From positions 960,001 to 1,024,000 of the forward strand of contig CAWHDR010000001.1 of the NCBI GenBank assembly GCA_963828165.1: 64,000 bases of DNA, given 5' to 3'. The notes under the pieces were generated by a model. That model was not told where the DNA came from, ran no database searches, and saw nothing but the letters and a program-made list of their open reading frames with translations. This document shows positions 637-15,876 of the stretch, piece after piece. How positions within the stretch are numbered: the first letter of the stretch is position 1; each line of letters opens with the position of its first letter. The stretch comes from an uncultured Chloroflexia bacterium. Its GTDB lineage: Bacteria; Chloroflexota; Limnocylindria; Limnocylindrales; CSP1-4. A program made the position numbers and the translations under genes.

Positions 637-652
637 CCTAACGTTCGTTAGG
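637..652. promoter_or_regulatory. Palindromic TetR operator (PaaR-type)
   Basis: CCTAACG-TT-CGTTAGG perfect inverted repeat just upstream of the TetR start; fits the CNAACGNNCGTTNG consensus known for Thermus PaaR; overlaps a minus-strand TAGGTT -10-like box (635-640). Confidence 0.75.
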
Positions 653-694
653 CGCCAGCCTACGTCACGGCGGGCGTGTGGGCAAGCGGCGCGT

Positions 695-1474: not shown

Positions 1475-2265
1475 CCGCTGAACTCGACCAGCCGCCCGTC
1501 CACGATCTCGAATACCCGCCGGTCGATGGGCTCGTCCGCGCCACCCGACTGCTCGAGGATGAACTCCGCGAACATCCCCGCGAACCCCTGGTCGTCCGGC
1601 CGCAGACTTGCGGCCGTGAGGAGGTGACGCTCGGGGATGCCGACGAGCACGCGCGCCCCATTCCCACCCAGCTCCTTGGCGAGATGGGCGATGACGTCAG
1701 GCAGGAGGATCCGGACCGCATCCATGCCGTCGCCGGTGTCGGAGCTGATCAGGTGCCGTTCACCCGAGACCTCGTCGGTCCACGGCGCGGTCGCCGCCCA
1801 GGCCGCGAGGTTGCGCAGGGCCGCGTCCTGCAGCTCGACGGCCTCGATACCCCACGACAGCAGGTGATCGCCGTTCACCATGATGTCGAAGCCACCCGCG
1901 GGGATGGCGTACACCACGGGCAGCCCTGCCGGGCCGGCGTCGAGGACCGGCTGGGCATGGCTCTGCATCGCGTGCTGGGCCAGCGTGTCGCGCTGGACGT
2001 CCTCGATCGCGAGGCCCTGCGTCCCGACCGGCCGGAACGCGGGCCGGATGACGTCACGCGCCAGTGCCCAGTCGTGCTCGGGCGAATCGACCACCGACGA
2101 GGAGGACTGGGGCCGTGGCACGTGCCCGCTGACGGGCGCTGTGTCGTCGATCGGAGAGAGGATGTCAGGCGGACTGTCGCGGAGTGACGATGGCGGCTCG
2201 TCGCCGAGGTCTCTGGCCAGGTCGCGCCCGACGTCGCTCCCGCCTTCGTACGGGTCACGCTCCAT
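1471..2265 (-). CDS. Hypothetical protein (possibly DUF1444-like)
   Basis: Host-like ORF with a GTGA overlap to the next gene; 'LLSWGI..LQDAALRNL' and 'VLVGIPERHLL' resemble DUF1444. Confidence 0.6.
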   Translation of the reverse strand: MERDPYEGGSDVGRDLARDLGDEPPSSLRDSPPDILSPIDDTAPVSGHVPRPQSSSSVVDSPEHDWALARDVIRPAFRPVGTQGLAIEDVQRDTLAQHAMQSHAQPVLDAGPAGLPVVYAIPAGGFDIMVNGDHLLSWGIEAVELQDAALRNLAAWAATAPWTDEVSGERHLISSDTGDGMDAVRILLPDVIAHLAKELGGNGARVLVGIPERHLLTAASLRPDDQGFAGMFAEFILEQSGGADEPIDRRVFEIVDGRLVEFSG

Positions 2266-2283
2266 CCGTTCCTCCTCGTGTGG

Positions 2284-3087
2284 TCATCGGCCGGTCCAGG
2301 TCGGCGAGCGCTTCTCCATGAACGCACGCATCCCTTCGCGTTGGTCCTCGGTGGCAAAGAGCTCGAAGAAGGCCGCCCGCTCGGCACGCAGGCCGGCGCT
2401 GAGCGACAGGTCCGCGGCGGCGAGCACGGAACGTTTGGCGGCACGGACCGCGAGTGGCGGCATGCCGGCGATCGTGTCGGCCAGGTCCAGGGCCGCCTCG
2501 ACAGTCTGGGCGCTCGGGACGACCTTCGTGACGAGCCCGGCCGCCTTGGCCTCCTCGGCCGGCATCGCCCGCCCGGTCAGGATGAGCTCCATGGCCAGCG
2601 CCGCGCCGACTGCCCTGGTCAGACGCTGCGTGCCCCCGGCCCCTGGCATGACCCCGATACGGATCTCCGGCTGGCCGAACTGAGCGTCGTCGCCCGCAAC
2701 GATGAGGTCGCAGGTCATGGCCAGCTCGCAGCCGCCACCCAGGGCGAAGCCGCGGACGGCGGCGATCAGCGGCAGGCCGATCGAGCCGATACGGTCCCAA
2801 GCGGAGAAGTTGCCCTCGGCGTGCAGCCGCTCCGGAGTCTGGTCCGCGAGCTCCATGATGTCGGCACCGGCCGCGAACGCGCGGTCCCCGGCACCGGTCA
2901 GGACGACGACCCGGATGCGATCGTCGAGATCGAGCGCCTCGAGCTGGGCGGCCAGCTCGGCCAGGAGCGCGAAGCTGAGCGCGTTGTGCGCCTCGGGCCG
3001 ATCGATCGTGACGAGCGCGACGCCGTCATGCCCGGGGACGGGGGCATCGACACGGATCAAGCGGGTGGTCGGCTCGACGTCGGTCAC
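2284..3087 (-). CDS. Enoyl-CoA hydratase (PaaF-like)
   Basis: 'AFAAGADI', 'GFALGGGCEL', 'FGQPEIRIGVMPGAGGTQRL'. Confidence 0.9.
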   Translation of the reverse strand: MTDVEPTTRLIRVDAPVPGHDGVALVTIDRPEAHNALSFALLAELAAQLEALDLDDRIRVVVLTGAGDRAFAAGADIMELADQTPERLHAEGNFSAWDRIGSIGLPLIAAVRGFALGGGCELAMTCDLIVAGDDAQFGQPEIRIGVMPGAGGTQRLTRAVGAALAMELILTGRAMPAEEAKAAGLVTKVVPSAQTVEAALDLADTIAGMPPLAVRAAKRSVLAAADLSLSAGLRAERAAFFELFATEDQREGMRAFMEKRSPTWTGR

Positions 3088-3175
3088 GGGCTCCTCGCTG
3101 GTCGTCCCGTCAAGTATCCATGTTCCGGGAAGTGCGACGCGGGGTTTCCGGTCGATGCCACGGTGTCAACCAGCG

Positions 3176-3628
3176 CTATTCGCGGGCGCGAAGGGCGGCC
3201 TCGATCTCGTCGAGGTGCTCACCACGGTGCTCGCCGCGGGCCGGGCTGATCGGGCTGTCCGGATCGCCCGGCCAGAGCCGATCCAGGGGCAGCCGAGCAG
3301 CGAGGGCGTCCGTCTCCTCCGCGGTCTGCAGGGCGAACCGCGCGGCCGTGCGCGGCTCGATCTGGTGGATCAGGGGGCGGGTCGAGTCGTTCAGCCAGTC
3401 ACCATCGGGCTCGTCATCACCTGACACCCACGGCTCGCCTCGATCGATCTTCGCCGCAAGCGTCTGGAAGCGGATATCCCAGTAGGCGAGGTGACCGAGC
3501 ACTCCCGCTACCGTCCAGAATTCGTTCACGGGCGCCGTAAGCGCGTCGTCGTCCAGCCCCTCGATGAGCGCGCGCAGTCGCGCTCGCTGACGCGCGTTGG
3601 CTTCGATGTACGGCCGATCTTCGCTCAT
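3176..3628 (-). CDS. DinB/maleylpyruvate-isomerase N-terminal-like protein
   Basis: 'WTVAGVLGHLAYWD' and C-terminal 'EHRGEHLDEI' His motifs. Confidence 0.75.
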   Translation of the reverse strand: MSEDRPYIEANARQRARLRALIEGLDDDALTAPVNEFWTVAGVLGHLAYWDIRFQTLAAKIDRGEPWVSGDDEPDGDWLNDSTRPLIHQIEPRTAARFALQTAEETDALAARLPLDRLWPGDPDSPISPARGEHRGEHLDEIEAALRARE

Positions 3629-3695
3629 GGTCTGACCATACAGCCCGCGCGCGGGGCGCGCCCAAGCTCGGGCGAGGCTGCTTCACACTGGGCGA

Positions 3696-5075
3696 ATGAC
3701 CCGGCGTCGCGTCCTGAGCGCGCTCCAGTTCTTTCCGCGCGGCGGGTCGTCGCATGTCGCCCGCGCACTCGCGCGGGAGCTTCCGGCGCATGGCTGGGAC
3801 GTCACGATCCTGTCCGGCTCGCGGCGGGACCTCGAGGGTGTCGGCGACGCGGCGCGCTTCTACGCGGGCCTCGACGTGTATCCGGTGTCATTCGACGAGG
3901 CGCTCGCTTCGCCCGACCCACTGGCTCCGCCCCCGGGTGTTGCGCCGATCCAGCCGTCGTACGAGGATCGCCCCGGCGCTCCGGACCGGGTGTTCGCCAT
4001 GCTCGACGACCATGCCTACGAGCGGCAAGTACGCGCTTGGGCGAGCGTCCTGACCACCGCCGGCGCCGCCCGATTCGACGCGCTGCACCTGCACCATCTG
4101 ACGCCGATCCACGAGGCGGCAGCGCGAGTCGCTCCAGCGGTCCCGATCGTCGGACATCTGCACGGCACCGAGCTGCTGATGCTCGAGGCGATCGCAGCCG
4201 GCCCGCCGCTCAGCTGGACGCACGCCGAGGCGTGGGTCGAGCGAATGCGCCGCTGGGCGCACGGTTGCGAGCGACTCGTGCTGGTCTCCCCATCGGAGAT
4301 CCCACGCGTTGAGCGGTTGCTCAGCCTGGGTACGGACCGGCTGGTGGTGCTGCCGAATGGGTTCGACCCGCGCGTCTTCGCGCGGCGCGATGTCGATCGC
4401 GCGTCGCTCTACCGCGATGCGCTCGTCGAAGCGCCGCGCGGCTGGTCTGCCGGCCAGGAAGCCGGCAGCGTCCGCTACCTGCCCGAGGACGTTTCGACCC
4501 TCGCTGACGGGGTGGTGGTGCTCACGGTCAGCCGCTTCACCGGGGTAAAGCGGCTCCCGCTACTCATCGAGGCATTCGCCCTGGCCCGCGATCGCGCGCG
4601 GACGCCCACCGGGCTGGTGATCGTCGGTGGCCACCCGGGCGAGTGGGAGGGAGAGCACCCTGCCGATACGATCGCCCGACTCGGAGTGCGCGGCGTCTTC
4701 CTGGCCGGCTGGCGCGACCACGCTGAGGTCTCCGAATTCCTGTCGGCCGCGGACCTGTTCGCCCTGGCCTCAGTTCGCGAACAGTTCGGCCTCGTGCTCG
4801 TCGAAGCGATGGCGTGCGAGATGGCGGTGATTGCCGTCGACCGCTTCGGGCCTGGCGAGATCATCGACGACGGCGAAACCGGCTGGCTGGTGGAGCCCGA
4901 CGATGTCGGGGGCCTCGCCGGGGCGCTGCTCCACGCAGTCGACGACCCCGCTGAGCGGGCGCGCCGCGGCGCCCATGCGCGCGCCGTCGCCATCGAGCGC
5001 TACGGCTGGCCAAAACTCGCCGAGCGCCTGGCCGGCGTGTTGGATGCCTCCGTGGTCGGGCCACCAAGGCGATAA
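3696..5075 (+). CDS. Glycosyltransferase family 4
   Basis: 'LPNGFD', 'VSRFTGVKR', 'EQFGLVLVEAMA' GT-B motifs; CACACT-N6-ATG leaderless start. Confidence 0.9.
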   Translation: MTRRRVLSALQFFPRGGSSHVARALARELPAHGWDVTILSGSRRDLEGVGDAARFYAGLDVYPVSFDEALASPDPLAPPPGVAPIQPSYEDRPGAPDRVFAMLDDHAYERQVRAWASVLTTAGAARFDALHLHHLTPIHEAAARVAPAVPIVGHLHGTELLMLEAIAAGPPLSWTHAEAWVERMRRWAHGCERLVLVSPSEIPRVERLLSLGTDRLVVLPNGFDPRVFARRDVDRASLYRDALVEAPRGWSAGQEAGSVRYLPEDVSTLADGVVVLTVSRFTGVKRLPLLIEAFALARDRARTPTGLVIVGGHPGEWEGEHPADTIARLGVRGVFLAGWRDHAEVSEFLSAADLFALASVREQFGLVLVEAMACEMAVIAVDRFGPGEIIDDGETGWLVEPDDVGGLAGALLHAVDDPAERARRGAHARAVAIERYGWPKLAERLAGVLDASVVGPPRR

Positions 5076-5240
5076 CCGCGCTTTCTTGCGCAGTTGTAGG
5101 CGGACGACCTCGCAATCCCATTGGTCACGACGCGAGGGGTCGCGGCTTCGTCCCGCTTGGCGCCCACCGGGGGCCGTACCCGGGCAGCCAGTCTGCGTCG
5201 GCCCGTCGCTCGGCGCCGGGCTCGCGGTGACGAGACACAG

Positions 5241-5265
5241 CTCCGTTTGCGTCCGCCAATGACAC
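5241..5265 (+). repeat. Cassette site R1
   Basis: CTCCGTTTGC-GTCCGCCAATGACAC. Confidence 0.85.
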
Positions 5266-5339
5266 CTGAGACCGCTGCGCCTTCCCCGCGCATTCGTGCC
5301 TCGCTACGACTTAGTCGGCCCGCCGCCGTTCACCGCCTT

Positions 5340-5714
5340 CTAATTCCTGACCGTGTAGACGGTGTGATTGGCGATCCGATTCGCGAGGACGCGGTCGAGC
5401 ACGTCCGCTCGCGGCAGTTCTACGCGCTGATCGACGCTGTCGGAGCTCCAGGTGGCAGTCAACTCCAGCACGCCAGTCAGCTGGCTGAACAACGTCGATA
5501 GGTCGGCATGCAGGCTCGATCGATGCTCCTTGGGAAGCTTCCAACCGGATGGGCGATCCCATTCGCGGACCATCTCGCACCCGTGGAGAGACAACGTCGG
5601 CTCCTCGTCATCCCGGTCGATTTCCCAGTCGAGGGAGACGGGCGCGCGGTCCCAGCCGATGAGGTTCGCTCGATCCGACGGAGTCATCGGGCGCACGACG
5701 TAGACCATGCACAT
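5340..5714 (-). CDS. Cassette 1 hypothetical protein
   Basis: 124-aa ORF between R1 and R2; TACCCT-N6-ATG. Confidence 0.65.
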   Translation of the reverse strand: MCMVYVVRPMTPSDRANLIGWDRAPVSLDWEIDRDDEEPTLSLHGCEMVREWDRPSGWKLPKEHRSSLHADLSTLFSQLTGVLELTATWSSDSVDQRVELPRADVLDRVLANRIANHTVYTVRN

Positions 5715-5772
5715 GCCGCGAGGGTAGCAGTCGGCCCGCTGTTGGGCCCTCCCGTCGTCACAGCTCCCCGTG

Positions 5773-5797
5773 GTCGCAATGCGTCCGCCAATGACAC
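5773..5797 (+). repeat. Cassette site R2
   Basis: GTCGCAATGC-GTCCGCCAATGACAC. Confidence 0.9.
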
Positions 5798-6402
5798 TAG
5801 GGCGATAAATCCTCGCACTGAGTCAGAGTCTTCCCCGGCTTCACGAATTGACAAAGCGCGTCGTAGGAATCGTCGGAGCCTTTGAGCACGAGATACTTCG
5901 GGTAGGCGCCGAGGTGGTCGCCCTCGCCTTCATTGGTTTCCATCAGCAGAGCCGTTCGAGCTGGCACGCCGGGGATCCGGTATACCGTCCTCTTCTCGCC
6001 TTCATAGGACGTCGTGCCAGATGCCTCGAGACCATTGGGCCAATCGAAGCTTCGACCAATGGACACCAGGTATGGGTCCCCATTGACGGTTGCCGTGGCG
6101 GCCTCGAGAACCTCTGTCACGACCACGTTGCCTGGAAGCTGAACGACGTCCACTCGCGCGCTGACATGCGACCGAGTAGGGTCGGCAACCGCGACGCTCG
6201 GGGCACCGGCCTCGGGGCGGTCTGCCGGCCGGGACAGGCCGAGGACGGCGACGGCGGCCACGACTCCGAGCGCCACTATCGGAACCCAGCGCGGAAGGAG
6301 CGGACCCGGCTCATCCTCGGACGTCGCGACGACGGCGAAGGTCTCGGGCAGCTGACGATGTCGGTCGACATCCGCGAAGACGGTCGCCTGTTGATCACGC
6401 AT
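5797..6402 (-). CDS. Cassette 2 hypothetical membrane-anchored protein
   Basis: Hydrophobic segment 'WVPIVALGVVAAVAVLGL'; stop codon overlaps the last base of R2; TAGCCT-N8-ATG. Confidence 0.65.
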   Translation of the reverse strand: MRDQQATVFADVDRHRQLPETFAVVATSEDEPGPLLPRWVPIVALGVVAAVAVLGLSRPADRPEAGAPSVAVADPTRSHVSARVDVVQLPGNVVVTEVLEAATATVNGDPYLVSIGRSFDWPNGLEASGTTSYEGEKRTVYRIPGVPARTALLMETNEGEGDHLGAYPKYLVLKGSDDSYDALCQFVKPGKTLTQCEDLSP

Positions 6403-6428
6403 GTGCTCTCAGGCTACTCGACCTTGGT

Positions 6429-6453
6429 GTGGCTTAGCGTCCGCCAAAGTCAC
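6429..6453 (+). repeat. Cassette site R3
   Basis: GTGGCTTAGC-GTCCGCCAAAGTCAC. Confidence 0.88.
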
Positions 6454-6833
6454 CCGAATGGAGTAGCGCCAGGATCTGAGCCTGCGCGCATCGGCGAAAC
6501 GGGAAGCGAACTGGGGTCCGAAGCGTGAAGTCCATCCTCGGCAGAGAACATGACCAGTGCGACGACGAGGGCGTCACCGCTGGGCGATCGCAGCCGGAAT
6601 CCCTTTCGGTCATACGTCAGCGCCTTCAGAGCGTCCTCGCCCCCGATCGAGCGGACCTCGGCCGGTGAGACTTCGTCGATGGACTCGATGTCGAGCCCAT
6701 CCGGCATGTGAAGGAAGCTCACGCCCTTGAAGAGAACGTCGATCCGTGTCGGATTGTCGTTGTCCCGCTGGCTCCTCAGCAGCAGTTGGGCGTGAGTAAC
6801 CGCGTACTCCCATATGACGTAGCGGCGCGTCAC
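6450..6833 (-). CDS. Cassette 3 hypothetical protein
   Basis: 'WEYAVTHAQLLLRS..TRIDVLFKGV' looks like a conserved small-protein family; TGA inside R3; start placed at GTG 6833 (uncertain). Confidence 0.65.
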   Translation of the reverse strand: MTRRYVIWEYAVTHAQLLLRSQRDNDNPTRIDVLFKGVSFLHMPDGLDIESIDEVSPAEVRSIGGEDALKALTYDRKGFRLRSPSGDALVVALVMFSAEDGLHASDPSSLPVSPMRAGSDPGATPFG

Positions 6834-6928
6834 CGCGCAAACGAAAACGGGGTGCCAAGGACCGCACCCCCGAGGACGAAGGTGACCCTCCCAAACGGCC
6901 GCATTGCGCGATGTTACAGGCCACCCCG

Positions 6929-6953
6929 GTCGCAAAGCGTTCGCGAATGTCAC
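6929..6953 (+). repeat. Cassette site R4
   Basis: GTCGCAAAGC-GTTCGCGAATGTCAC. Confidence 0.85.
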
Positions 6954-7660
6954 TCGACCGGGGGCTTGAAACCGTAGCGTGCCTGCTCGTCCGCGATCGT
7001 GTAGCTGAGATCGGGCCGGAAATCCCGAGTTGTAATCAGCAATCCCTCTAATCCATAGAAGCTCTCGTCGAATGGGCGCAGGCCGATCGCCCGGCAGTAT
7101 CGATCGACCAGTGCCGGCGTCAGTCGGTCCGCCACGCGGCGGGCCCCGTAGGAACGGAGGTCCTCGTAGGGCTGCGGACGCCCGGTCGCGACGAAGACCA
7201 AACGGCCACCATCATCACGTCCCACATGAACGGTGCGTTCATGGTTGAGAAAATCAGTTGGGTGGTCGGCGATGAGCTGGAAGCGAAGGGTCTCATGGCT
7301 CGGTACCGGCCACCACACGATGTAGACGGCGCGGCATCTCATCATCTCCGCGATCACACCGACCGGAGCTTCGTCAGCACCGGTGTGCTGGTTGCTGAAG
7401 TAGGCCGTCCAATCGGACCGCGTGCCAAGGAGTAGCTCGCGATTGCCTAGGCTCATCGGTTCCAGGGCAGATAGGACCTCGCGAAGCGGCCCAACCACGC
7501 CCAGCTCGACCGGCTGCAGATCGAGTCCTCGACGCCATGCGGCCAGGACTTCGGCAACTTCGCCGATCGCGGCGTCGAAGAACGCGTAGGCGCCCGTGAT
7601 GGGCCACAGCTCCGCTCCGAGAAGCGGTTTTGGCTCGGGCGCCGCGGGTTCGTCGTGCAT
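6950..7660 (-). CDS. Cassette 4 hypothetical protein (possibly immunity-like)
   Basis: 236-aa ORF filling R4-R5; TGA inside R4; TACGCT-N7-ATG; motifs 'WTAYFSN', 'GRPQPYED..Y'. Confidence 0.7.
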   Translation of the reverse strand: MHDEPAAPEPKPLLGAELWPITGAYAFFDAAIGEVAEVLAAWRRGLDLQPVELGVVGPLREVLSALEPMSLGNRELLLGTRSDWTAYFSNQHTGADEAPVGVIAEMMRCRAVYIVWWPVPSHETLRFQLIADHPTDFLNHERTVHVGRDDGGRLVFVATGRPQPYEDLRSYGARRVADRLTPALVDRYCRAIGLRPFDESFYGLEGLLITTRDFRPDLSYTIADEQARYGFKPPVE

Positions 7661-7696
7661 GCGAACAAGCGTATCGGGCGGGACCAGGCCGCTCGG

Positions 7697-7721
7697 CTCA
7701 GTCTGTGTCCGCCAATGTCAC
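7697..7721 (+). repeat. Cassette site R5
   Basis: CTCAGTCTGT-GTCCGCCAATGTCAC. Confidence 0.9.
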
Positions 7722-8053
7722 CCGGTCGACTGCCGAGATTGGCGGGCGGCGCGATCCGCTGCGTAGCGCCTCGCCACGGCCTTCAGCTCGTCAATCGAGG
7801 CATCGCTTCGAGCACTCCACGCGTCCCATTCGCCGTGGGGGTAGCTCAGCAATTGGAAGAGCGCGGCCTGGACGACGTGGTATGTCTGGTCGGTCCCAAT
7901 CCCCTCCGGCCACACATCGAGGACCGCCCGAACCGTGTCTCGCTCGTAACCGAAGAGGGTCGGGAATTCCCAGTCGGGATAGAGCGGGCCATCGACCGTG
8001 GCAAGAAGGACGCTATGGATGACATCGCGATCGCGTTCCGTCAACGCCGCCAT
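7718..8053 (-). CDS. Cassette 5 hypothetical protein
   Basis: 'GPLYPDWEFPTLFG..LLSYPHG' small conserved-looking protein; TGA inside R5; TACACT-N6-ATG. Confidence 0.72.
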   Translation of the reverse strand: MAALTERDRDVIHSVLLATVDGPLYPDWEFPTLFGYERDTVRAVLDVWPEGIGTDQTYHVVQAALFQLLSYPHGEWDAWSARSDASIDELKAVARRYAADRAARQSRQSTG

Positions 8054-8076
8054 TGCCGGAGTGTAGGCATCGCGAG

Positions 8077-8101
8077 GTCTCACAGTGTTTGGGAATGTCA
8101 C
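8077..8101 (+). repeat. Cassette site R6
   Basis: GTCTCACAGT-GTTTGGGAATGTCAC. Confidence 0.85.
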
Positions 8102-8139
8102 CCGAAAGCGGGGGCACTCCGACCTGTCATGCTCCACGT

Positions 8140-8439
8140 GTGTCCACGGAGTCGGCCGAGAAGACCGAGCAGTTTGAGTACGAGGTCGCGGAGGCTCTTG
8201 CGCTCCCGCAGCACGGCATCGGCGCGATTGGCTGGATCCGTGTCGGGACAGTTCGAATTGGCGACCAAGTAGCCGTCGACGATGACGCAGCTGAGCCATA
8301 CACGGTTCGCGGAGTAGGAATTCTCGACGGGCTGGGACCGAAAGCGGGTAGCGCCAACATCGAGCTTCTCCTCGACGACTACGGCACGAAACGATTGGCG
8401 CCAGGCGTTCCAATTCGCAGGTGGAGAGACTTCACCTAG
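8140..8439 (+). CDS. Cassette 6 small protein resembling the EF-Tu domain II beta-barrel
   Basis: 'FEYEVAEALALPQHGIGAIGWIRVGTVRIGDQVAV' parallels the EF-Tu D2 pattern; CATGCT-N6-GTG. Confidence 0.55.
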   Translation: MSTESAEKTEQFEYEVAEALALPQHGIGAIGWIRVGTVRIGDQVAVDDDAAEPYTVRGVGILDGLGPKAGSANIELLLDDYGTKRLAPGVPIRRWRDFT

Positions 8440-8454
8440 GGCGAGGGCAACCGC

Positions 8455-8479
8455 ACCGTTACGTATCCGCCAATGTCAC
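8455..8479 (+). repeat. Cassette site R7
   Basis: ACCGTTACGT-ATCCGCCAATGTCAC. Confidence 0.82.
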
Positions 8480-9087
8480 TCGAGCGTGAGCTTTCCGTGT
8501 GCTCCCGTCAGGGAGATCGACCACGCCCCGGATGAACCCGTCACGGCGATCGGTAGGTCGTGGTCGCCGAGCCAGTCGGCGAGACGTTCTTGGTCTGCCG
8601 CCACCGACAGAAGCGTCAGACTGACCGAACCATCCCGATGGCGAACGGCGGCGGCTCCCGGCACCTGCATGCCGTCTCCCCATTGGATGAAGAACGGAAG
8701 CCCGGGCTCGCGCACGGCGATTTCGACACCTACGCTGCGCCAGGCGATGAGGGCACCCCGGGGATCGACTCGCGAACCAGGAAGGACGGGCTGGCCGAGC
8801 CTTCGCCCGACAGCGTCGATCGAATCCGTTCGAACAGCCCAGCCGAGCGGGCTTCCCGGAAGCGCGGAGGCGACCCATCGCCCGAAGGCGCTCCGACTCG
8901 CCGCCTCGCGGTCGGCCACCGCGACGAGCTCGAGATAGGACTCGCCGAGCGGGACGATCCAATTGGCCGTACCCCACGCTGGATGCCGCCCACCCTCAAC
9001 GGAGACAAGCCCGTACCGAGCCTTCAGCCTGGCCACCTCGGCCGCGAGGTCACGGACGGGCAGGATCACGTGATCGATCGCTAGCAC
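8476..9087 (-). CDS. Cassette 7 VOC/glyoxalase-like protein
   Basis: 'IDHVILPVRDL', 'GGRHPAWGTAN', 'YLELVAV', 'LPFFIQW'; TGA inside R7. Confidence 0.85.
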   Translation of the reverse strand: MLAIDHVILPVRDLAAEVARLKARYGLVSVEGGRHPAWGTANWIVPLGESYLELVAVADREAASRSAFGRWVASALPGSPLGWAVRTDSIDAVGRRLGQPVLPGSRVDPRGALIAWRSVGVEIAVREPGLPFFIQWGDGMQVPGAAAVRHRDGSVSLTLLSVAADQERLADWLGDHDLPIAVTGSSGAWSISLTGAHGKLTLE

Positions 9088-9121
9088 AGCTCACTCAAGG
9101 TGGTACCCGCTGGGCTCACAG

Positions 9122-9169
9122 GTGTCCGGGAAGGTTTCTCAGATCGGCCACGTATGGGGGCTATGTCAC
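9122..9169 (+). repeat. Degenerate/split cassette site R8
   Basis: GTGTCCGGGAAGGTTTC (9122-9138) followed by ...GGCTATGTCAC ending 9169, which holds the next gene's TGA. Confidence 0.5.
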
Positions 9170-9567
9170 CTGTCAGGTTCGGCCGCGTCGAACGGTGGCA
9201 GGGCGTGCTGCCCGAACGATTCCTGCCACCCAACATAGGCGACCGACAACCCGTCACTTACGTCGGTCAGGTCCGTCGTGGCACCGGTCAACTCGTTGGT
9301 GCCGACCACTTTGATCCAAGGCAATCGCTCGATAGCCCACATCGTATTGCTCACCGCCTCGTTCGTCACGGCGACGACGAGCTCTCGCACGAACTGCTGC
9401 CCTTCGGGCGAAAGGGCCTGAAAGGCAACCCCGACATCCCGTGCGCCAGGAAACCGCATCCGCCCCTCGAACGTGGCGAACCAGTTACTGATCGTGTAGT
9501 CGAACCCGGTCTCGACGATCTCCCGACCGAGGGCAGCGAGCGCGTCCATTTCGTCATCGATGGTCAC
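9166..9567 (-). CDS. Cassette 8 hypothetical protein (possibly immunity-like)
   Basis: 'GRM..LSPEGQQFVRELV..DVSDGL..GW..F' helical protein; TGA inside R8. Confidence 0.65.
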   Translation of the reverse strand: MTIDDEMDALAALGREIVETGFDYTISNWFATFEGRMRFPGARDVGVAFQALSPEGQQFVRELVVAVTNEAVSNTMWAIERLPWIKVVGTNELTGATTDLTDVSDGLSVAYVGWQESFGQHALPPFDAAEPDR

Positions 9568-9590
9568 GGTGAGAGTATGCGGCCGGGACC

Positions 9591-9640
9591 CATGGGATCG
9601 GGTCGAAGCGAGGGAGCCCTTGCGACTGTCCACAAGCGTC
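9591..9640 (+). repeat. 50-bp direct repeat, copy 1 (5' end of cassette 8)
   Basis: CATGGGATCGGGTCGAAGCGAGGGAGCCCTTGCGACTGTCCACAAGCGTC identical to 9917-9966. Confidence 0.95.
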
Positions 9641-9662
9641 TCACAGTGTTCGGGAATGTCAC
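9638..9662 (+). repeat. Cassette site R9
   Basis: GTCTCACAGT-GTTCGGGAATGTCAC, one mismatch from R6. Confidence 0.9.
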
Positions 9663-9700
9663 CCGAAAGCGGGGGCACTCCGACCTGTCGGGCTCCACGT

Positions 9701-9913
9701 GTGTCCACGGAGTCGGCCGAGAAGACCGAGCAGTTTGAGTACGAGGTCGCGGAGGTTCTTGCGCTCCCGCAGCACGGCATCGGCGCGATTGGCTGGATCC
9801 GTGTCGGGACAGTTCGAATTGGCGACCAAGTAGCCGTCGGCGATGACGCAGCTGAGCCATCCACGGTTCGCGGAGTAGGAATTCTCGACGGGCTGGGACC
9901 GAAGGCGGGTAGC
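9701..9913 (+). pseudogene. Truncated duplicate of the cassette 6 gene
   Basis: 9638-9913 matches 8077-8352 with 7 substitutions by eye, then breaks off after 'GPKAGS'. Confidence 0.85.
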
Positions 9914-9916
9914 CCG

Positions 9917-9966
9917 CATGGGATCGGGTCGAAGCGAGGGAGCCCTTGCGACTGTCCACAAGCGTC
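9917..9966 (+). repeat. 50-bp direct repeat, copy 2
   Basis: Identical to 9591-9640; ends in the GTC that begins R10. Confidence 0.95.
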
Positions 9967-9988
9967 GCTTGGTGTCCGCCAATGTCAC
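9964..9988 (+). repeat. Cassette site R10
   Basis: GTCGCTTGGT-GTCCGCCAATGTCAC. Confidence 0.9.
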
Positions 9989-10036
9989 CCGAAGCAAAGA
10001 GCGTTGGTAGCGGCCGGCAGGGGCGCCAGTCCGTCC

Positions 10037-10459
10037 CTAGACGGCCTCAAACATGTGTGCTAGGGACGTAGCGATCAAGGACAGCGAGCCGGGGTCCACG
10101 ATTACCTGTGCCGTCACCTTCCAGGCCGGTTCGTGCCATTCGTGGACAGGATCGACGCCCAGCACCACCTGGATGGCGACGTGTCCGATGCGGTCGTGCC
10201 AACATGTCAACTGGAAGTTGCCGTCGCCGTAGGAGTCCCAGCCTCGTGGGCCTTCCCAGCCTTTCCAATCCCGGGCGAGGCCCTGGAAAAAGTCCACCAG
10301 CTCACCGCCCTGGATGTAGTGACCGGGAAACACCGGTTCTGACGCTGTGATTCCGGGGAGGTCGAGAGAAACGACGAACGACTGCCCAACCGGGTCGTCG
10401 GTTTGGAAGGTCAGCGTGGCTCCCGGCTGGCCGATGGTCACCGAGGGCGTGGGTTCCAT
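10037..10459 (-). CDS. Cassette 10 DUF6228-like protein
   Basis: 'LVDFFQGLARDWKGWEGPRGWDS..LTCWHDRIGHV..W' pattern; TACAGT-N6-ATG. Confidence 0.75.
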   Translation of the reverse strand: MEPTPSVTIGQPGATLTFQTDDPVGQSFVVSLDLPGITASEPVFPGHYIQGGELVDFFQGLARDWKGWEGPRGWDSYGDGNFQLTCWHDRIGHVAIQVVLGVDPVHEWHEPAWKVTAQVIVDPGSLSLIATSLAHMFEAV

Positions 10460-10589
10460 CCGACGACTGTAGCAACCACAGGCCGCATTTGGCAGGCCGG
10501 GCAGCACTCGAGCTGCATGTCCGCAAGGCTCAGGTCGGGCTGCGGACGATCTGAATGACCGCTGGACTCGGCAGTGACGCCGCGTGATC

Positions 10590-10614
10590 CTCCCAAAGTG
10601 TCCGGGAATGTCAC
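10590..10614 (+). repeat. Cassette site R11
   Basis: CTCCCAAAGT-GTCCGGGAATGTCAC. Confidence 0.88.
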
Positions 10615-10738
10615 CTGACGAAGTGGAGAGGTGGTGTGTACGCGTGCCCGCTCGCACCAGACATCGCGGTTCGGTCGTTCCATGTGCGGGCTGTTCGAGT
10701 CATGCTCAACGGCAACGCTCCGAGATTGGAGGACCGGG

Positions 10739-11182
10739 ATGCTCCCGCCGGCGAGAAGACCGTCTGACAGGATGCCTCGGCAGGCCGCGCAGGGTGGCAG
10801 GTCGCCGTGGCTGCTGGCTGTGCTCGTGTTCCTCTCCGTCAGCCTGGTGACCCTCGGCCCGACGAGCTGGCCTCATGTGGTCGACGCGGATTGTCCGGCG
10901 CCAGAGTTCATGCTCGATTCCGACGGCGATTGCATGGCCCGAGGCACGCTCATCGTCATGACCGGCGCGCCTTCCGACGGCAAAACTCGCGCGGACCTCG
11001 AACGCGCCATTGAACCGCTCGGCGGACGGATCGAGACGGACGTCGACGCTCTGAGGATCTACGGAGTTCTGTTTCCGTCAGCGGACACCCTTGCAGAGCT
11101 CGACGAACTGGAGGCCGCCCTCGAAGCGCTCGGATTCTGGGTCAGCCGCTCATACACCGGGGAACTGTTCGCCACGACCTGA
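10739..11182 (+). CDS. Cassette 11 putative secreted/membrane protein
   Basis: GGAGG at 10728-10732 before the ATG; hydrophobic 'WLLAVLVFLSVSLVTLG'. Confidence 0.6.
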   Translation: MLPPARRPSDRMPRQAAQGGRSPWLLAVLVFLSVSLVTLGPTSWPHVVDADCPAPEFMLDSDGDCMARGTLIVMTGAPSDGKTRADLERAIEPLGGRIETDVDALRIYGVLFPSADTLAELDELEAALEALGFWVSRSYTGELFATT

Positions 11183-11289
11183 GCCACGCCCCTGCCGGCG
11201 TGCGGAATCCGCGCCGCGGCGCGCCCGGCTGGTCCGATCGGAGCCCGAGTCATCGGTGGTCGTCACCTTCGGGTGTAGAGCACGCAAGC

Positions 11290-11314
11290 GTCAGTCACTG
11301 TGCGTCGATGTCAC
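11290..11314 (+). repeat. Degenerate cassette site R12
   Basis: GTCAGTCACT-GTGCGTCGATGTCAC retains the leading GTC and the terminal ATGTCAC. Confidence 0.65.
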
Positions 11315-11732
11315 CAGGGCCATCCCAGGCCGCCATGACCTGTTCTTGATCCGTCTTGCTTTCGCCGAGGTGCGTGACGCCTCCGGCAGTCACCTCGTGG
11401 CGGGAGCTCAGGTCCGACCACGGCTCGGCGTAGGCGAATCCCTCGAGTACATCCAGAACACCGTCCTGAACGAACAGCACGAACCCGGCCCCATGCTCCA
11501 AGCCTTCGATGGTTGCGGTGACGTCCCCAAGGTCCATCCTCCCGGGCTTCACGGGGGCGGGCGCAGCATCCGTCGCGACATCGAGCTCCGTGATGAAGCC
11601 CACGCCTGTCATCTGGCGCGACGCCACCTGGCAACGCTCGACTTGGCGGCGAAGCGCATTCATGACGGGGTGGTCCGGCGCGAGGATGGCCGCGATCACG
11701 TCCCGCTCCAACAAGCTCAGCGCGTCGGCCAT
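11295..11732 (-). CDS. Cassette 12 hypothetical protein
   Basis: 'RQMTGVGFIT..GLEHGAGFVLFVQDG.LDVLEGFAY.EPW'; reads through the R12 core; TAACGT-N7-ATG. Confidence 0.75.
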   Translation of the reverse strand: MADALSLLERDVIAAILAPDHPVMNALRRQVERCQVASRQMTGVGFITELDVATDAAPAPVKPGRMDLGDVTATIEGLEHGAGFVLFVQDGVLDVLEGFAYAEPWSDLSSRHEVTAGGVTHLGESKTDQEQVMAAWDGPGDIDAQ

Positions 11733-11757
11733 GCCGGGCACGTTACAACGCGGTTGT

Positions 11758-11782
11758 GTCCCTCAGTGTCCGCCAATGTCAC
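11758..11782 (+). repeat. Cassette site R13
   Basis: GTCCCTCAGT-GTCCGCCAATGTCAC. Confidence 0.9.
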
Positions 11783-12317
11783 CCGGTCCGGCCACGATAC
11801 GGAAAACCATCCATTGGTCGTGGAAACCCGCGCAGAGCGGGACATCCGGGCTCCACTTGGCTGATGCGCGACCGAAGGCGGCGATGGTACGGGCTAGCAG
11901 GTGGAGATTGCGCGCCTCGTCCGCAGCGTTACCGCGCCACGTGGTTGCTAACAGGGCAGCAAGTTCAGGCACAGCAGGCCCAGAACGGACCTGTGACGGA
12001 TCGAAGTCCGATGCCCAACTGTCGTCACCAACGGACTCAGACTCATAAGAGAGACACTCGAAGAACGCACTACTCCATCCGTTATCGACGTCAAACTCCC
12101 AATAGACCGCGGCCGTGGTCTTGTCCAGTCGGTTGCCCAAGGCGTCGATGCTGTCCGCAAGGGCAGAGGTATACGAACTGAGATCGACCGAGGACACGGC
12201 CGCGGCCGCCTCAGGATCAAGGCGACGGCAGTCTTCGGCGAATGTGTACTCGAGACCATCCCAATCGCGGCTGGCGATCCAGGCTCTCATCGCTTCCACG
12301 CCCGCATCGATATCCAC
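11763..12317 (-). CDS. Cassette 13 hypothetical protein (possibly immunity-like)
   Basis: 'AVYWEFDVDNGW..DDSWASD..CAGFHDQ'; reads through the R13 core; TACCCT-N6-GTG. Confidence 0.7.
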   Translation of the reverse strand: MDIDAGVEAMRAWIASRDWDGLEYTFAEDCRRLDPEAAAAVSSVDLSSYTSALADSIDALGNRLDKTTAAVYWEFDVDNGWSSAFFECLSYESESVGDDSWASDFDPSQVRSGPAVPELAALLATTWRGNAADEARNLHLLARTIAAFGRASAKWSPDVPLCAGFHDQWMVFRIVAGPGDIGGH

Positions 12318-12342
12318 GCTCGGAGGGTACGGCACCGCCGGG

Positions 12343-12681
12343 TCACATGGCGTGATCTCCCCCGAGGTCTTCCGCCTCTTCCAGTACCAGCAACGTCGAC
12401 AGACCTGGTGCGATCTCGCGCAGGTTTCGGCCCGCGGCGCGCATCGCGTCCGAAGCGAGACCCGCGTCCATCGCCGCGCGATCGTCGAATTCCATCGCCG
12501 TGACCAACACAAGGTCGGTCTCGCCTCCCAGGGCCTCGGAAACGCGCTGCACCTTGGTCGAGCGCAAGCCCGGCGTCTCGGCAACGAGAGGCAGATGTTC
12601 CGTCGCGTAGCGACGCTCGAACTCGGCGAGCGCGTCGGGGCCGCCCTCAGGGCGGCGATACAGGGCGAGTAGCGTGGTCAT
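12343..12681 (-). CDS. EthD family reductase
   Basis: 'LYRRP..FERRYATEHLPLV..PGL..MEFDD' EthD pattern. Confidence 0.8.
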   Translation of the reverse strand: MTTLLALYRRPEGGPDALAEFERRYATEHLPLVAETPGLRSTKVQRVSEALGGETDLVLVTAMEFDDRAAMDAGLASDAMRAAGRNLREIAPGLSTLLVLEEAEDLGGDHAM

Positions 12682-13493
12682 GCGGTCACCTCCTCAGTGG
12701 TCGTCGCGGTCGTTCCGGCGCGCTGGCGCGCGATCGCCTCGGTCGATCGATAGAACTCGCCGAGCGCTTCGGTGGCGATCACCGGTCGTTCCGAGAACGC
12801 CTCGTGGCCGGCCTCGGGCAGGACGAGCAGGCGCCCGTCCAGGACGGAGCGCGACAGCCGCCAGGCATCGTCGACCGGGACGAACGGGTCGCGGTCACCG
12901 GCCGCCACGAGCGTCGGCGGATCGATCGTCCGGATCTCGCGCGGCGTCAGCAACGATTGGGTCGCCACGTCGCGCGCGATAGCCGGGAGCAGCACCCGCC
13001 AGGCACCCGCACCCTGCTCGGGATCGTGCCGGCGCGCGAGGTCGGCCGCCCACGTGGGATCGTCACGGTCGATCCGGATCGGGTCCATCAGCCGTCGGGC
13101 GACGCTGGCGCGCGGTTCTCGGTCGGTCGTGATGCCGACGACGACGAGGGTCCTCAATCGGTCGGGCGCCCGGACGGCGACGCGCAGCGCGGTCATCGCC
13201 CCAAGCGAGAACCCGAGCAGGTGGAACGTCTCCAGCCCCAGGGCGTCGGCGAACGCCAGCAGGTCGTCTGCGAGCCAGTCGGCCGAGAATCCACCGGTCG
13301 CCGTGTCCCAGCGCGTCCGTCCATGACCGCGGGCGTCCGGCGTGTAGCAGCGAAAGGCCTCCGTGAGCGTCGGCAGCTGGCCGCGAAAGTCTCGGGCGGC
13401 GTCGGATGTCGCGCCGTGCAGGAGGATCAGCGGCGGGCCGGCGCCGGCGACGTCGTACCCGACGGTCAGGCCGTTGGCGTCGATGGTGGGCAT
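12678..13493 (-). CDS. Alpha/beta hydrolase
   Basis: 'LLHG', 'DARGHG', 'GFSLG' nucleophile elbow, 'GDRD', 'AGH'. Confidence 0.88.
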   Translation of the reverse strand: MPTIDANGLTVGYDVAGAGPPLILLHGATSDAARDFRGQLPTLTEAFRCYTPDARGHGRTRWDTATGGFSADWLADDLLAFADALGLETFHLLGFSLGAMTALRVAVRAPDRLRTLVVVGITTDREPRASVARRLMDPIRIDRDDPTWAADLARRHDPEQGAGAWRVLLPAIARDVATQSLLTPREIRTIDPPTLVAAGDRDPFVPVDDAWRLSRSVLDGRLLVLPEAGHEAFSERPVIATEALGEFYRSTEAIARQRAGTTATTTEEVTA

Positions 13494-13563
13494 CACGGGC
13501 GATGCTACGACGTCCGCCCGGCGACGACCCACCGAGCCAGAGCCCGGACCTACAATCGGGTCC

Positions 13564-14973
13564 ATGACCGACCCCGAGCCCGGCACGCGCCTCGAACGCG
13601 ATTCGATGGGCGAGATGCCCGTCCCGGCCGATGCCCTCTACGGCGCATCGACCCAGCGCGCAGTCCTGAACTTCCCGATCTCGGGGCAGCCCTTCCCACC
13701 CGGGTTCATCCGCGCCCTCGCCCTGGTGAAGCTCGCGGCCGCGGAAACGAACGGGGAGCTCGGACTCCTCGAGCCGGACGTCGCGCGGGCGATCGCGACT
13801 GCGGCGGCAGCCGTCGCCGACGGCGACCACGACGCGCAATTCCCGATCGATATCTACCAGACGGGATCGGGAACCTCGACCAACACGAACATGAACGAGG
13901 TCGTGGCGCACCTCGCCTCGAGGCGGCTGGGCGAGGGTCGAAACGTCCACCCGAACGATCACGTCAATCGCTGTCAGAGCTCGAACGACGTGATCCCGAC
14001 CGCGCTTCAGCTCTCGGCGGCGATGGCGATCGAGGAAGCGCTGCTGCCGGCGCTCATCGAGCTGCAGACCGCGCTGGCCGCGAAGGCCGACGAGTTCTGG
14101 CCGGTGGTCAAGACCGGGCGAACCCACCTCCAGGACGCGACGCCGATCCGGCTGGGCCAGGAGTTCCGTGGCTATGCCGGACAGGTCGAGGAAGCCGTGC
14201 GGCGAGCCCTGGCCGCCCAGGCCGAGTTGCTGTCCGTGCCGCTCGGGGGCACGGCCGTCGGGACCGGCATCAACGCCCATCCCGAGTTCGCGGCACGGAC
14301 CTGCCAGCGCCTGGCCGAGCTGACCGGCCTCCCCGTGCGCGAGACCCGGAACCATTTCCACGCCCAGGCCTCGCTCGACGCGGTGATCGCCGCGCACGGC
14401 GCGATCCGGACGATCGCGCTGGGCCTGTGGAAGATCGCCTCGGACGTGCGGCTCATGGGCATGGGCCCGCGCGCCGGCCTCGCGGAGCTGTCGCTGCCTG
14501 AGACCCAGCCGGGTTCGAGCATCATGCCGGGCAAGGTGAACCCAGTCATCGTCGAGTCGCTGACGATGGTGGTGGCGCGGGTCGTCGGCAATGACGCGAC
14601 CGTGGCGTTCGCGCAGACCGGCTCGCTGTTGGAACTCAACGTGATGCTGCCGGTCACGGCGGCCGCGATGCTCGAATCGATCGGTCTGCTGGCCGCCGCC
14701 GCCCGCAACTTCAGCGACCGAACGATCACCGGGCTGACCGCCACGGAGCGCGGTCCGCAGCTGGTCGAGCAGGGATTGATGCTCGCGACGGCGCTCGCGC
14801 CCGTGATCGGCTATGACGACGCTGCGACGCTGGCCAAGGAGGCGTTCAAGTCCGGGCGCACGATCCGGGAGCTGGCCCTGGAGCGCGGCATGAGCTCCGA
14901 GGACCTCGACCGGCTGCTGGATCCGGCCGCGATGACCGAGCCGGGCCTCGACGGCGGACCCGCCGGCGGCTGA
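13564..14973 (+). CDS. fumC: Class II fumarate hydratase
   Basis: 'QTGSGTSTN', 'HPNDHVN..QSSND', 'KTGRTHLQDATP', 'GSSIMPGKVNP'; TACAAT-N7-ATG. Confidence 0.93.
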   Translation: MTDPEPGTRLERDSMGEMPVPADALYGASTQRAVLNFPISGQPFPPGFIRALALVKLAAAETNGELGLLEPDVARAIATAAAAVADGDHDAQFPIDIYQTGSGTSTNTNMNEVVAHLASRRLGEGRNVHPNDHVNRCQSSNDVIPTALQLSAAMAIEEALLPALIELQTALAAKADEFWPVVKTGRTHLQDATPIRLGQEFRGYAGQVEEAVRRALAAQAELLSVPLGGTAVGTGINAHPEFAARTCQRLAELTGLPVRETRNHFHAQASLDAVIAAHGAIRTIALGLWKIASDVRLMGMGPRAGLAELSLPETQPGSSIMPGKVNPVIVESLTMVVARVVGNDATVAFAQTGSLLELNVMLPVTAAAMLESIGLLAAAARNFSDRTITGLTATERGPQLVEQGLMLATALAPVIGYDDAATLAKEAFKSGRTIRELALERGMSSEDLDRLLDPAAMTEPGLDGGPAGG

Positions 14974-15096
14974 CCCTCACGGGGAGGGACCGACCGGACC
15001 TTCCGCGGCTGGTTGGAACGGTCCTGGCGCCAAGCGCGGGGCACGAGCGCCGCGGAACCGATCCCATGGGCGGCCCGACCGGTACAATCCGGCGCG

Positions 15097-15876
15097 ATGA
15101 CCGACACGCGACTCTGGGACCGCGCGGCCCTGACCGTCCAGTCCGGGGAGCGCCGCCTTCCGGCGGTCGCGTCGCTGCCCGCGACGCTGCCGACGCCGGC
15201 GATGCTCTTCGACTTCATGCGCGATGCGGAGCTGCGTTTCGCGACCCTGCGGATGCGCATCCTGGAGCGCACGACCACGACGCGCGGCGAGGACGCTGTC
15301 CAGATGGACGTCCTGGTCCGCCACCCGGCGCACGCGAAGGTGACGACCAGCCGCCCGGGCAAGGTGCTGGGCCACGACTACGAGGTCTGGATCTCGGACG
15401 GTGACCTCGTTCGGACGTACGCAGCCGCCCACAAGCTCGGCACGCAGCGCCCGATGCGGAACCGGCCCCGGGGCCTCGGCGACAAAGATTTTCCAGGCAT
15501 GTCGCGCGTCTACGAACCGGTCACCGCGTTGCCGATGGAGACCCTGCCCGACACGTTCGTCCATCCCGGCGGCTACTGCCAGAACGTGCTCGCCACGGGC
15601 CGCTGCACGGTCACCGGCACGGCGCTCGTCGCGCAGCGGGAGGCGATCCTGCTCGAATGCGACCATCCGCGCACCATCGAAGTCGCCGCGGACCGGCCCG
15701 ACTTCAAGATCTCCATCGCGGTCGATCGCCAACTCGGCGTGATCCTGCGTCTGGTCGAGACGATCGGCGGAGGGACGAGCCGCGACGCCGAGGTGACGGA
15801 CATCGGTCCGGACGCGCCGCTGCCGCCTGGTGCCTTCGACTTCGTCTTCCCCACCGGGACGACGATGCTCTACTGA
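15097..15876 (+). CDS. Hypothetical protein, possibly LolA/RseB-like fold
   Basis: 'VWISDGDLVRTY' and 'FDFVFPTGT' are reminiscent of LolA-like proteins; TACAAT-N8-ATG. Confidence 0.55.
   Translation: MTDTRLWDRAALTVQSGERRLPAVASLPATLPTPAMLFDFMRDAELRFATLRMRILERTTTTRGEDAVQMDVLVRHPAHAKVTTSRPGKVLGHDYEVWISDGDLVRTYAAAHKLGTQRPMRNRPRGLGDKDFPGMSRVYEPVTALPMETLPDTFVHPGGYCQNVLATGRCTVTGTALVAQREAILLECDHPRTIEVAADRPDFKISIAVDRQLGVILRLVETIGGGTSRDAEVTDIGPDAPLPPGAFDFVFPTGTTMLY

Follow-up and report, generated by a model that had tools for sequence, protein, structure and literature searches.

A fossil duplication in a gene-cassette array of an uncultured Chloroflexia bacterium places the crossover at a central dinucleotide and points to a large serine recombinase

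How are single genes gathered into rows on a bacterial chromosome, and at which base pair is each unit joined to the next? This question is raised by a cassette array in the genome of an uncultured Chloroflexia bacterium, in which small genes are separated by copies of a conserved site. The array lies in a stretch of 64,000 nt, hereafter called the window, and coordinates without a prefix are window positions. Integrons are the textbook platform for collecting single genes; they depend on a specialised tyrosine recombinase and on folded DNA. The window array preserves the remains of a duplication which, taken together with joints compared between arrays, resolves the crossover to the base pair without an experiment. 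Contigs of the source genome (G000) are designated C1, C5, and C6, and the loci and genomes compared with it carry L and G numbers, respectively. The repeat search was run on positions 1–20000 of the window, positions 7000–11000 were read by eye, and the identity of the longer repeat was checked with BLAST.

Two direct repeats make up the fossil. The first pairs 8077–8352 with 9638–9913 on the plus strand over 276 nt; repeat search and BLAST agreed on 7 mismatches (97.464% identity), the number that the first-pass annotation of this DNA had counted. Copy 1 comprises a site and the 3' part of the cassette-6 reading frame, which runs on the minus strand and ends in APAFG* with its TGA at 8098–8100. 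The second repeat pairs 9591–9667 with 9917–9993 (77 nt, 91%). Its first 50 nt are identical, as had been read before: 9591–9640 (plus strand), the parent, is the last 50 nt of cassette 8 and forms the 5' leader of a minus-strand gene, and 9917–9966 (plus strand) is the second copy. Between the repeats lie three bases, 9914–9916, that match neither parent when read by eye. A tandem duplication of cassettes 6, 7, and 8, followed by an internal deletion with these three bases as filler at its joint, had been proposed from the letters and is supported as the simplest reading of both repeats and the filler. The resulting hybrid cassette contains an ATG at 9919–9917 (minus strand), within the cassette-8 leader, that is in frame with the C-terminal 85 codons of the truncated cassette 6 (9659–9913). 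The full cassette-6 frame has no ATG, GTG, or TTG start in at least its first 70 codons.

Sites were scored with a 30-nt position weight matrix (PWM) built from 37 source-genome sites, in which index 0 is the base preceding GTC and GTC occupies indices 1–3. In the 3.3-Mb assembly, 46 sites scoring at least 22.6 bits were separated by a gap from 4 background matches of at most 17.7 bits. These sites fall into five arrays: 12 in the window, 10 at C1:585.6–591.2 kb (C1:585k), 5 at C1:1609–1611.6 kb (C1:1610k), 2 at C1:1778 kb (C1:1778k), and 17 at C5:13.4–22.6 kb (the C5 array). All joints of the window array named below are written on the plus strand.

Three of these joints reveal how the duplication arose. 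Joint R6 (8076–8105, 36.6 bits, centre TC at 8078–8079) reads TAGGCATCGCGAG-GTC-TCACAGTGTTTGGGAATGTCACC from 8064; R9 (9637–9666, 40.0 bits) reads ACTGTCCACAAGC-GTC-TCACAGTGTTCGGGAATGTCACC from 9625; and R10 (9963–9992, 41.2 bits, centre TC at 9965–9966) reads ACTGTCCACAAGC-GTC-GCTTGGTGTCCGCCAATGTCACC from 9951. R9 is a chimera. Leftward from and including GTC it reads as its left-hand parent R10, and from GTC rightward as its right-hand parent R6 save for one T/C change, exactly the composition claimed for it at first sight. Up to G 9638 it follows R10 and from 9641 it follows R6, with the TC at 9639–9640 shared by both; index 0 thus belongs to the left parent and index 4 to the right one. 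R6 and R10 also share an identical block of 13 nt, AATGTCACCCGAA, which the exchange did not use, and this argues against an exchange driven by homology.

Comparisons at other joints narrowed the position further. The cassette at 10616–11290 recurs in the C5 array, the C1:1610k array, and locus L071 of another genome at 87–91% identity, and its end is found in the C1:1778k array. All five copies end in ...AAGCGTC and are followed by five different site interiors; a contig search with the protein of this five-context cassette found one locus. Another cassette is common to C1:1610k and L071 (94.6%) and has left neighbours ending in ...gaTC|TC and ...gtGA|TC, respectively, while the 14 nt after TC differ at one position. 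The next joint of C1:1610k is itself a chimera of two L071 joints lying three cassettes apart, one matching it in the CA before TC and the other in the outer CTGA. An array occupies the same position on the chromosome in genomes G124 and G095; their flanks are 96–97% identical, they have no cassette in common, and the identity of their right flanks starts exactly at TC (g|TC versus c|TC). Finally, contig C6 starts one base before TC, at the G, in the site that terminates the C5 array. Index 1 follows the left side in both C1:1610k/L071 joints and in the G124/G095 comparison. Since index 0 of R9 also follows the left and index 4 the right, the exchange is confined to indices 2–3, that is, TC.

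None of the six mapped joints falls in the AATGWCAC core, and all lie at 2–3 nt of identity beside the longest shared block. The conservation profile of 102 distinct sites from the source genome and 14 other genomes agrees with this position: conservation starts sharply at the T (99 of 102) and ends 27 nt later, and the preceding G is kept in only 61 of 102. Arrays have a uniform centre dinucleotide, which varies between lineages. It is mostly TC, with TG in six genomes (8/8, 3/3, 2/2, 2/2, 5/5, and 3/3) and TT in one (4/4), as expected if recombination partners must match at the centre. We conclude that a crossover at the central dinucleotide TC is supported, bounded by six joints. The first-pass annotation had placed the exchange within the shared GTC, outside the conserved core, and had ascribed it to site-specific recombination rather than to homologous recombination in the core. 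Both statements are supported, R9 and the five other joint comparisons narrowing the first to TC; the unused 13-nt block and the agreement of the joints speak for the second. Where the same cassettes have different neighbours in other genomes, the breakpoints lie at TC and none inside the core, a comparison the annotation had called for.

The arrangement of bases around TC resembles the sites of serine integrases. Directly beside TC, each cassette joint carries a half-site of 25 bp, GCAAAGYGTSCGSSAATGWCACCYG. A distinct short site stands at the end of arrays, with the consensus TCGCAAWGYGTSATSTCSC, which resembles the cassette site minus five bases (CGSSA); its half-site is about GCAAWGYGTSATSTCSC. 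Such terminal sites were found at C1:1608766, C1:1777397, and C5:10187 in the source genome and in L006, L007, L008, and L012, at the same array end in all cases, namely the end upstream of the cassette genes. Read outward from the centre, the arm of the cassette site is gCa.AG.GT.CG.cAATGTCAC, the arm of the recombinase-bearing element described below is c.a.AG.GTGTG.TAATGT, and the terminal arm is gc.cAGcGTgacgTCaC. The first two stand in one register, and the TCAC of the terminal arm is 5 bp nearer to the centre. In the excerpts of Rutherford et al. (2013; PMC3783163) that deal with serine integrases, an attP-type half-site is 25 bp long, and an attB-type half-site has its outer, zinc-ribbon motif about 5 bp nearer to the centre. 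Because the arms match this published register, we would class the cassette site as an attP-type half-site (P') and the terminal site as an attB-type half-site (B'), with TC as the centre between two arms. Two inverted half-sites meet at the joint of the recombinase element, where P mirrors P', and not at cassette joints. The earlier view that the crossover lies at the edge of the site therefore has to be replaced: TC appears to be the centre of a two-armed site for a serine recombinase, and at cassette joints the other arm of this site is degenerate.

A candidate enzyme lies next to one of the arrays. The source genome has three PF00589 genes, none of them near an array, and one PF00239 gene, which encodes a large serine recombinase (LSR) with Resolvase and Recombinase domains. 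The start of this gene (C5:10244–11305) lies no more than 50 nt from the short site that terminates the C5 array. Together with a Rep-like gene (PF23343, REP_ORF2-G2P), the LSR gene occupies a unit of 3.2 kb in the first cassette position (C5:10206–13380, L001), flanked by the terminal site and by a full site, an arrangement which suggests that the LSR rides on a small replicating integrative element. An intact homologue of 453 aa (L102:2540–3900) combines Resolvase, Recombinase, and Zn_ribbon_recom domains; among solved structures, its best match is a 500-residue chain named 'Integrase' (9iu2_A, E 3.4e-17). When 401 genomes of the host family were queried with the LSR protein, at least 31 gave matches, the first pass of this search being the stricter one. 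Joints were read in 20 LSR loci with at least 55% identity and sufficient sequence. In 15 of them TC, and in 3 TG, directly adjoins a conserved element end (ACATTA plus 13 nt), and the short site comes next; the LSR joint of G575 has the centre TG. Twelve loci were re-examined with larger flanks. Nine carry an array of 1 to 14 sites, 2.7–10.8 kb beyond the LSR and always oriented as in C5, and two of the three without an array had less than 2.4 kb of flank.

The repeats, the chimeric joint, the six joint positions, the half-site architecture, and the linkage of LSR and arrays in relatives are observed features of these genomes. Taken together, they make it likely, in our judgement, that the arrays consist of mobile gene cassettes assembled by the LSR, with P' on the cassette and B' at the array end. 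A more far-reaching version would see here the serine-integrase counterpart of the integron, with one-armed P'::B' capture at a self-regenerating B', arrays growing from one end throughout the family, and most of them orphaned of their enzyme; we regard this version as evenly balanced between right and wrong.

Beyond these features, we infer catalysis by the LSR, one-armed synapsis, and an order of events as follows. An LSR element with P and P' arms would integrate at a site whose right arm is B', like any serine-integrase element. Ordinary cassettes would bear P' only, so that the circular form of a cassette would read own end, TC, P'. Such a circle would recombine with the terminal site, which consists of the end of the previous cassette, TC, and B'. 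The incoming cassette would come to lie beside B', leaving a one-armed scar (end, TC, P') on one side and making a fresh end–TC–B' on the other. As B' would be remade with each insertion, the array could grow from the B' end. Run backwards between B' and an internal P', the same reaction would excise blocks from that end. At a time when cassette 8 was the last one, the block 6-7-8 may have been excised in this way and re-inserted at the B' of a sister chromosome, which would make R9 the end of cassette 8, TC, and the P' of cassette 6, as seen. A later illegitimate deletion with a 3-nt filler would have spared only 276 nt of cassette 6 and 50 nt of cassette 8 in the second copy. The cassettes to the right would have been added afterwards, and the two copies would since have diverged by 2.5%.

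If this proposal is true, arrays that capture single genes arose at least twice on different chemistry, and many rows of genes punctuated by 'orphan' repeats in uncultured bacteria could be read in the same way. It would also mean that a serine integrase works with one specific arm per partner, which bears on partner choice and on use in genome engineering.

Several findings weigh against assembly of the arrays by the LSR. The LSR gene of the source genome is frameshifted: its last 128 residues lie in another frame, where they are 69% identical to residues 325–452 of the intact homologue, and the third domain, the zinc ribbon, is truncated. This may reflect decay or an assembly error. No recombinase adjoins the array of the window in the gene and Pfam scan of the window. 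The LSR locus L107 has no array within 15 kb despite ample flank, and many array-bearing relatives, such as G095, G161, and G180, gave no LSR match in a search whose stricter first pass may miss some. The left arms of cassette joints are nearly unconserved; WCAC in the attB register occurs in 7 and GYGT in 8 of the 102 sites, both peaking at the right place. The enzyme would therefore need to act on one-armed sites, and we know of no published serine integrase that does so. For the five-context cassette, a count by eye over the inner 16 nt of its own site gave on average 12.7 of 16 identical positions between copies, against about 14 expected from the cassette body and about 10.6 for unrelated sites. 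As these positions diverge more than the body, faster change or occasional exchange inside the site is possible. Finally, some arrays of relatives have a recombinase of a different class nearby. Genes for a Xer-like tyrosine recombinase of 324 aa (full-length copies in relatives are 66–85% identical to one another) lie 0.3–4.5 kb from arrays in L008, L017, and L052.

That Xer-like enzyme, rather than the LSR, might move the cassettes, in a manner resembling the arrays called rAID or integrons and with an overlap region of 6–8 bp instead of a dinucleotide. In the three loci its gene stands on the B' side in constant relative orientation, and its family is the only other non-cassette protein family that recurs at arrays. 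Polyimmunity loci and rAID-1 arrays adjoin XerC/D-family recombinases in the portions of PMC3482391 and 10.1101/471110 that describe them. We nevertheless consider an Xer-driven origin unlikely. A site was found near 1 of 30 Xer-like loci (±1.5 kb) and near 1 of 20 (±10 kb), both times at the same G568 locus, and the recombinase is absent from the source genome with its 46 sites. The gene is multi-copy, and what is conserved comprises the gene and about 40 nt upstream only. Moreover, a crossover window of 2 nt and a 25-bp arm opposite a short arm shifted by 5 bp form the pattern of serine integrases. The duplicated structure could also be an artefact of assembly, for example a chimera of two co-assembled strains. 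The bin contains a second haplotype at 95–97% identity (C6), which makes a long-range strain chimera possible, and the two repeat copies differ by 2.5%. The chimeric site and the hybrid cassette are independent of long-range assembly, as they are short: the hybrid cassette of about 330 nt fits, with both joints, within the length of a single read. The crossover position was, in addition, confirmed at joints outside the duplication. An artefact thus appears quite improbable.

The remaining alternatives question the nature of the exchange itself. Repeats generally promote homologous recombination and replication slippage, and the sites share identical blocks of up to 13 nt, so that the arrays might have been formed between conserved repeats without any site-specific enzyme. 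Yet the six mapped joints all avoid the longest shared block and lie in the adjacent 2–3 nt of identity; the sites always point the same way and include a separate terminal form; and the LSR element abuts the same point in 18 of 20 loci. We regard this explanation as very unlikely. A true integron, or a cluster of attC sites lacking integron integrases (CALIN), in which attC hairpins are recombined as single strands by IntI, would account for the layout: co-oriented small genes with a site at each 3' end, a crossover at the far end of the site, lower GC content, and arrays without a nearby integrase. The sites of these arrays, however, show no hairpin signal. Single-strand folds of the 46 sites were no better than those of shuffled sequences (mean z -0.30), pairing between flanks equalled that of mismatched flank pairs (94 sites, p = 0.54), and the conserved block is one of sequence, not of structure. 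The three PF00589 genes of the source genome are far from the arrays, and the array-linked tyrosine recombinase of relatives scored 38.9 bits with the integron-integrase model (cut-off 265). An integron in the strict sense is therefore hardly credible. Of the two analogies that the first-pass annotation had drawn, that to dinucleotide-core recombinases fits, whereas that to integrons fails for want of a hairpin signal and an integron integrase.

Assembly of the arrays by the LSR would set them apart from known systems of similar chemistry or layout. Besides the integrase of Listeria phage A118, the enzymes of phiC31, Bxb1, and SPbeta are large serine integrases of this kind. Canonical serine integrases need two-armed attP and attB sites, and integration destroys attB. 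The likeness to the A118/LI integrase model (PMC3783163) extends to the combination of Resolvase, Recombinase, and zinc-ribbon domains, the 2-bp centre, the 25-bp half-site of the element, the outer motif 5 bp nearer to the centre on the chromosome side, and the position of the recombinase gene beside the attachment site. Unlike the elements of these integrases, the units described here are mostly single genes with one attP-type arm and no recombinase, stacked by the dozen, and their target is seemingly remade with each insertion, so that the array grows. The staphylococcal cassette chromosome (SCC) consists of cassettes driven by an LSR (Ccr) that lie in tandem at one chromosomal site, some without a recombinase of their own. 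The present arrays would share with it the tandem arrangement of LSR-driven cassettes and the occurrence of units lacking a recombinase. SCC units measure tens of kilobases, an island has only a few of them, and their insertion point is the 3' end of rlmH. The cassettes studied here are, in contrast, 0.3–1.2 kb long and mostly consist of one gene; an array has up to 17 sites, the genome has five arrays at several unrelated chromosomal locations, and the LSR scored far below the cut-offs of the Ccr models (CcrA/B/C, NCBIfam; 27–50 bits versus 700–900).

With integrons and CALINs, the arrays have in common the stacking of promoter-poor single-gene cassettes with one site at each 3' end, the crossover at the end of the site, a distinct platform site (attI there, B' here), and the frequent lack of a recombinase. 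They differ in that the presumed enzyme is a serine and not a tyrosine recombinase, the motif is one of double-stranded sequence and not a folded hairpin, and the crossover is a dinucleotide. The rAID-1 arrays of Bacteroidales and the polyimmunity loci, as far as portrayed in parts of 10.1101/471110 and PMC3482391, likewise contain small co-oriented genes, skewed GC content, and repeated intergenic motifs. The few immunity-type families among the cassettes (Imm26 and DUF7674, and in a relative DUF4265, DUF1963, and a sub-cutoff Barstar-like match) recall those loci, and most cassettes match nothing. The same parts of these sources associate the loci with XerD-family tyrosine recombinases; an Xer-like gene lies near three arrays of relatives and near none in the source genome. 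Our literature search found no paper on serine-recombinase arrays of single-gene cassettes.

The site family belongs largely to one family of uncultured high-GC bacteria, that of the host. It was present in 54 of 137 sampled genomes of this family and rare in three sister families (3/16, 6/92, and 13/153, mostly as single matches), and a reversed control pattern gave zero matches in all groups searched. Most cassette proteins had no family match. Those of the source genome that did matched Glyoxalase_3, DUF6228, Imm26, DUF7674, and DUF4279, with Imm26 and DUF7674 in the C1:585k array; the matches to DUF1963, DUF4265, and, below the Pfam cut-off, Barstar stem from the relative G220. Contig C6 (24.1 kb) is 95–97% identical to C5:892–10206 and to the end of C1, thereby linking both contig ends, and it begins at the terminal site of the C5 array. 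The bin therefore holds two strains, which probably differ in array content.

Within the window, a 15-nt core (up to 3 mismatches) gave 13 matches compared with 2.27 expected, a count that no shuffle out of 100 attained. The plus strand between 5252 and 11783 holds eleven of them. The GC content is 0.61–0.69 over 5001–12500 and 0.69–0.74 in the flanks. Small reading frames occupy the space between sites, nearly all opposite in strand to the site as written, and at 8 of the 13 window joints the gene stops at the TGA contained in the site (GGTGACAT on the gene strand). The array forms part of a strain-specific island (3136–12360) with a DinB-like gene, a GT4 glycosyltransferase gene, and the cassettes, which is missing from the same locus in relatives. 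In 5 of 11 orthologous loci, the match to 3001–3135 sits 35 to about 690 nt from the match to 12361 onward (56 nt in L115, the closest), and no site of at least 18 bits was found in any of the 11. Since these relatives join the two segments without sites, 3136–12360 as a whole is an island that includes its terminal site. The homology to relatives begins at 12357–12389, and the GC content rises past 12500.

The array opens with joint 1 (5240–5269, 34.6 bits), which has its centre TC at 5242–5243 and a P'-type half-site on the right. It is followed by joint 2 (5772–5801, centre TC, 40.5 bits), joint 3 (6428–6457, centre TG in place of TC, 33.7 bits), joint 4 (6928–6957, centre TC, 43.6 bits), and joint 5 (7696–7725, centre TC, 34.9 bits). 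Beyond R6, joint R7 (8454–8483, 28.4 bits) has a degenerate inner part and the centre CC; its TGA is the stop of the cassette-7 gene (8476–9087, minus strand), which encodes a Glyoxalase_3 domain (Pfam, E 2.5e-37). Joint R8 (9144–9172) is degenerate and below the PWM threshold; read by eye, it keeps ATGTCAC at 9163–9169 and has about 2 extra nt, and the open reading frame 9166–9567 (minus strand) stops at its TGA. To the right of R10 lie a cassette gene with a DUF6228 domain (10037–10657, minus strand; Pfam, E 6.3e-21) and joint 10 (10589–10618, 41.3 bits), which is distinct from R10, has the centre TC, and forms the left end of the five-context cassette. The gene of that cassette, taken from the list of open reading frames (10631–11182, plus strand), is oriented opposite to the other cassette genes, and its right end is joint 11 (11289–11318, centre TC at 11291–11292, 27.5 bits). 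Joint 12 (11757–11786, 38.9 bits) is the last full site. A probable terminal short half-site of the attB type (B'), TCACATGGCGTGATCTCCC, follows at 12343–12361 (plus strand) with 3 mismatches to the terminal consensus, and the conserved flank begins directly after it.

The cassette at 6479–6891, to the right of joint 3, has an 80%-identical relative in G124, the ends of which are too diverged for joint mapping. Two other sites of the source genome have a TG centre like joint 3, and such joints would be locked in place if recombination requires matching centres. The 100 nt leading up to the first full site (5119–5217) are 76% identical to a cassette end in the C5 array and may be the remnant of a site-less cassette between the glycosyltransferase gene and joint 1.

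Other readings of the sites were tried and rejected. For attC-like hairpins, neither folds nor flank pairing gave a signal, and a few conspicuous inverted repeats, for example near 6928 and 7696, are not general. A promoter in the left flank, with a TAnnnT box at a fixed distance, was seen by eye in source-genome sites and fades in the set of 102, in which only an A at index -12 reaches 65 of 102. An Xer/dif reading was abandoned as well: the sole dif-like sequence found, at C1:2888997, resembles the cassette site only in ATGTC. This sequence, ACTTCCGATAA-GGTGAG-TTATGTCCGGT on the minus strand, was the only one found in the assembly with a pattern representing dif sites. It lies about 14 kb from the end of C1 and would be near the C5 array if the two contigs adjoin in the way indicated by C6.

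The Xer-like genes of the relatives have features of their own. About 45 nt upstream of them (L021–L050; for example, L008:14343–14383) lies a conserved leader with a short hairpin followed by TTGC, and the stem of the hairpin covaries, with CACGAT..ATCGTG in some loci and CACCAT..ATGGTG in others. The gene reaches at least 5 copies per genome and is often found at contig ends. In the region of the C1:1610k array, a reading frame at L004:7160–8137 (C1:1609160–1610137, minus strand) matches a nucleotidyltransferase domain (E 3.9e-5) and an AadA_C domain (E 2.9e-8).

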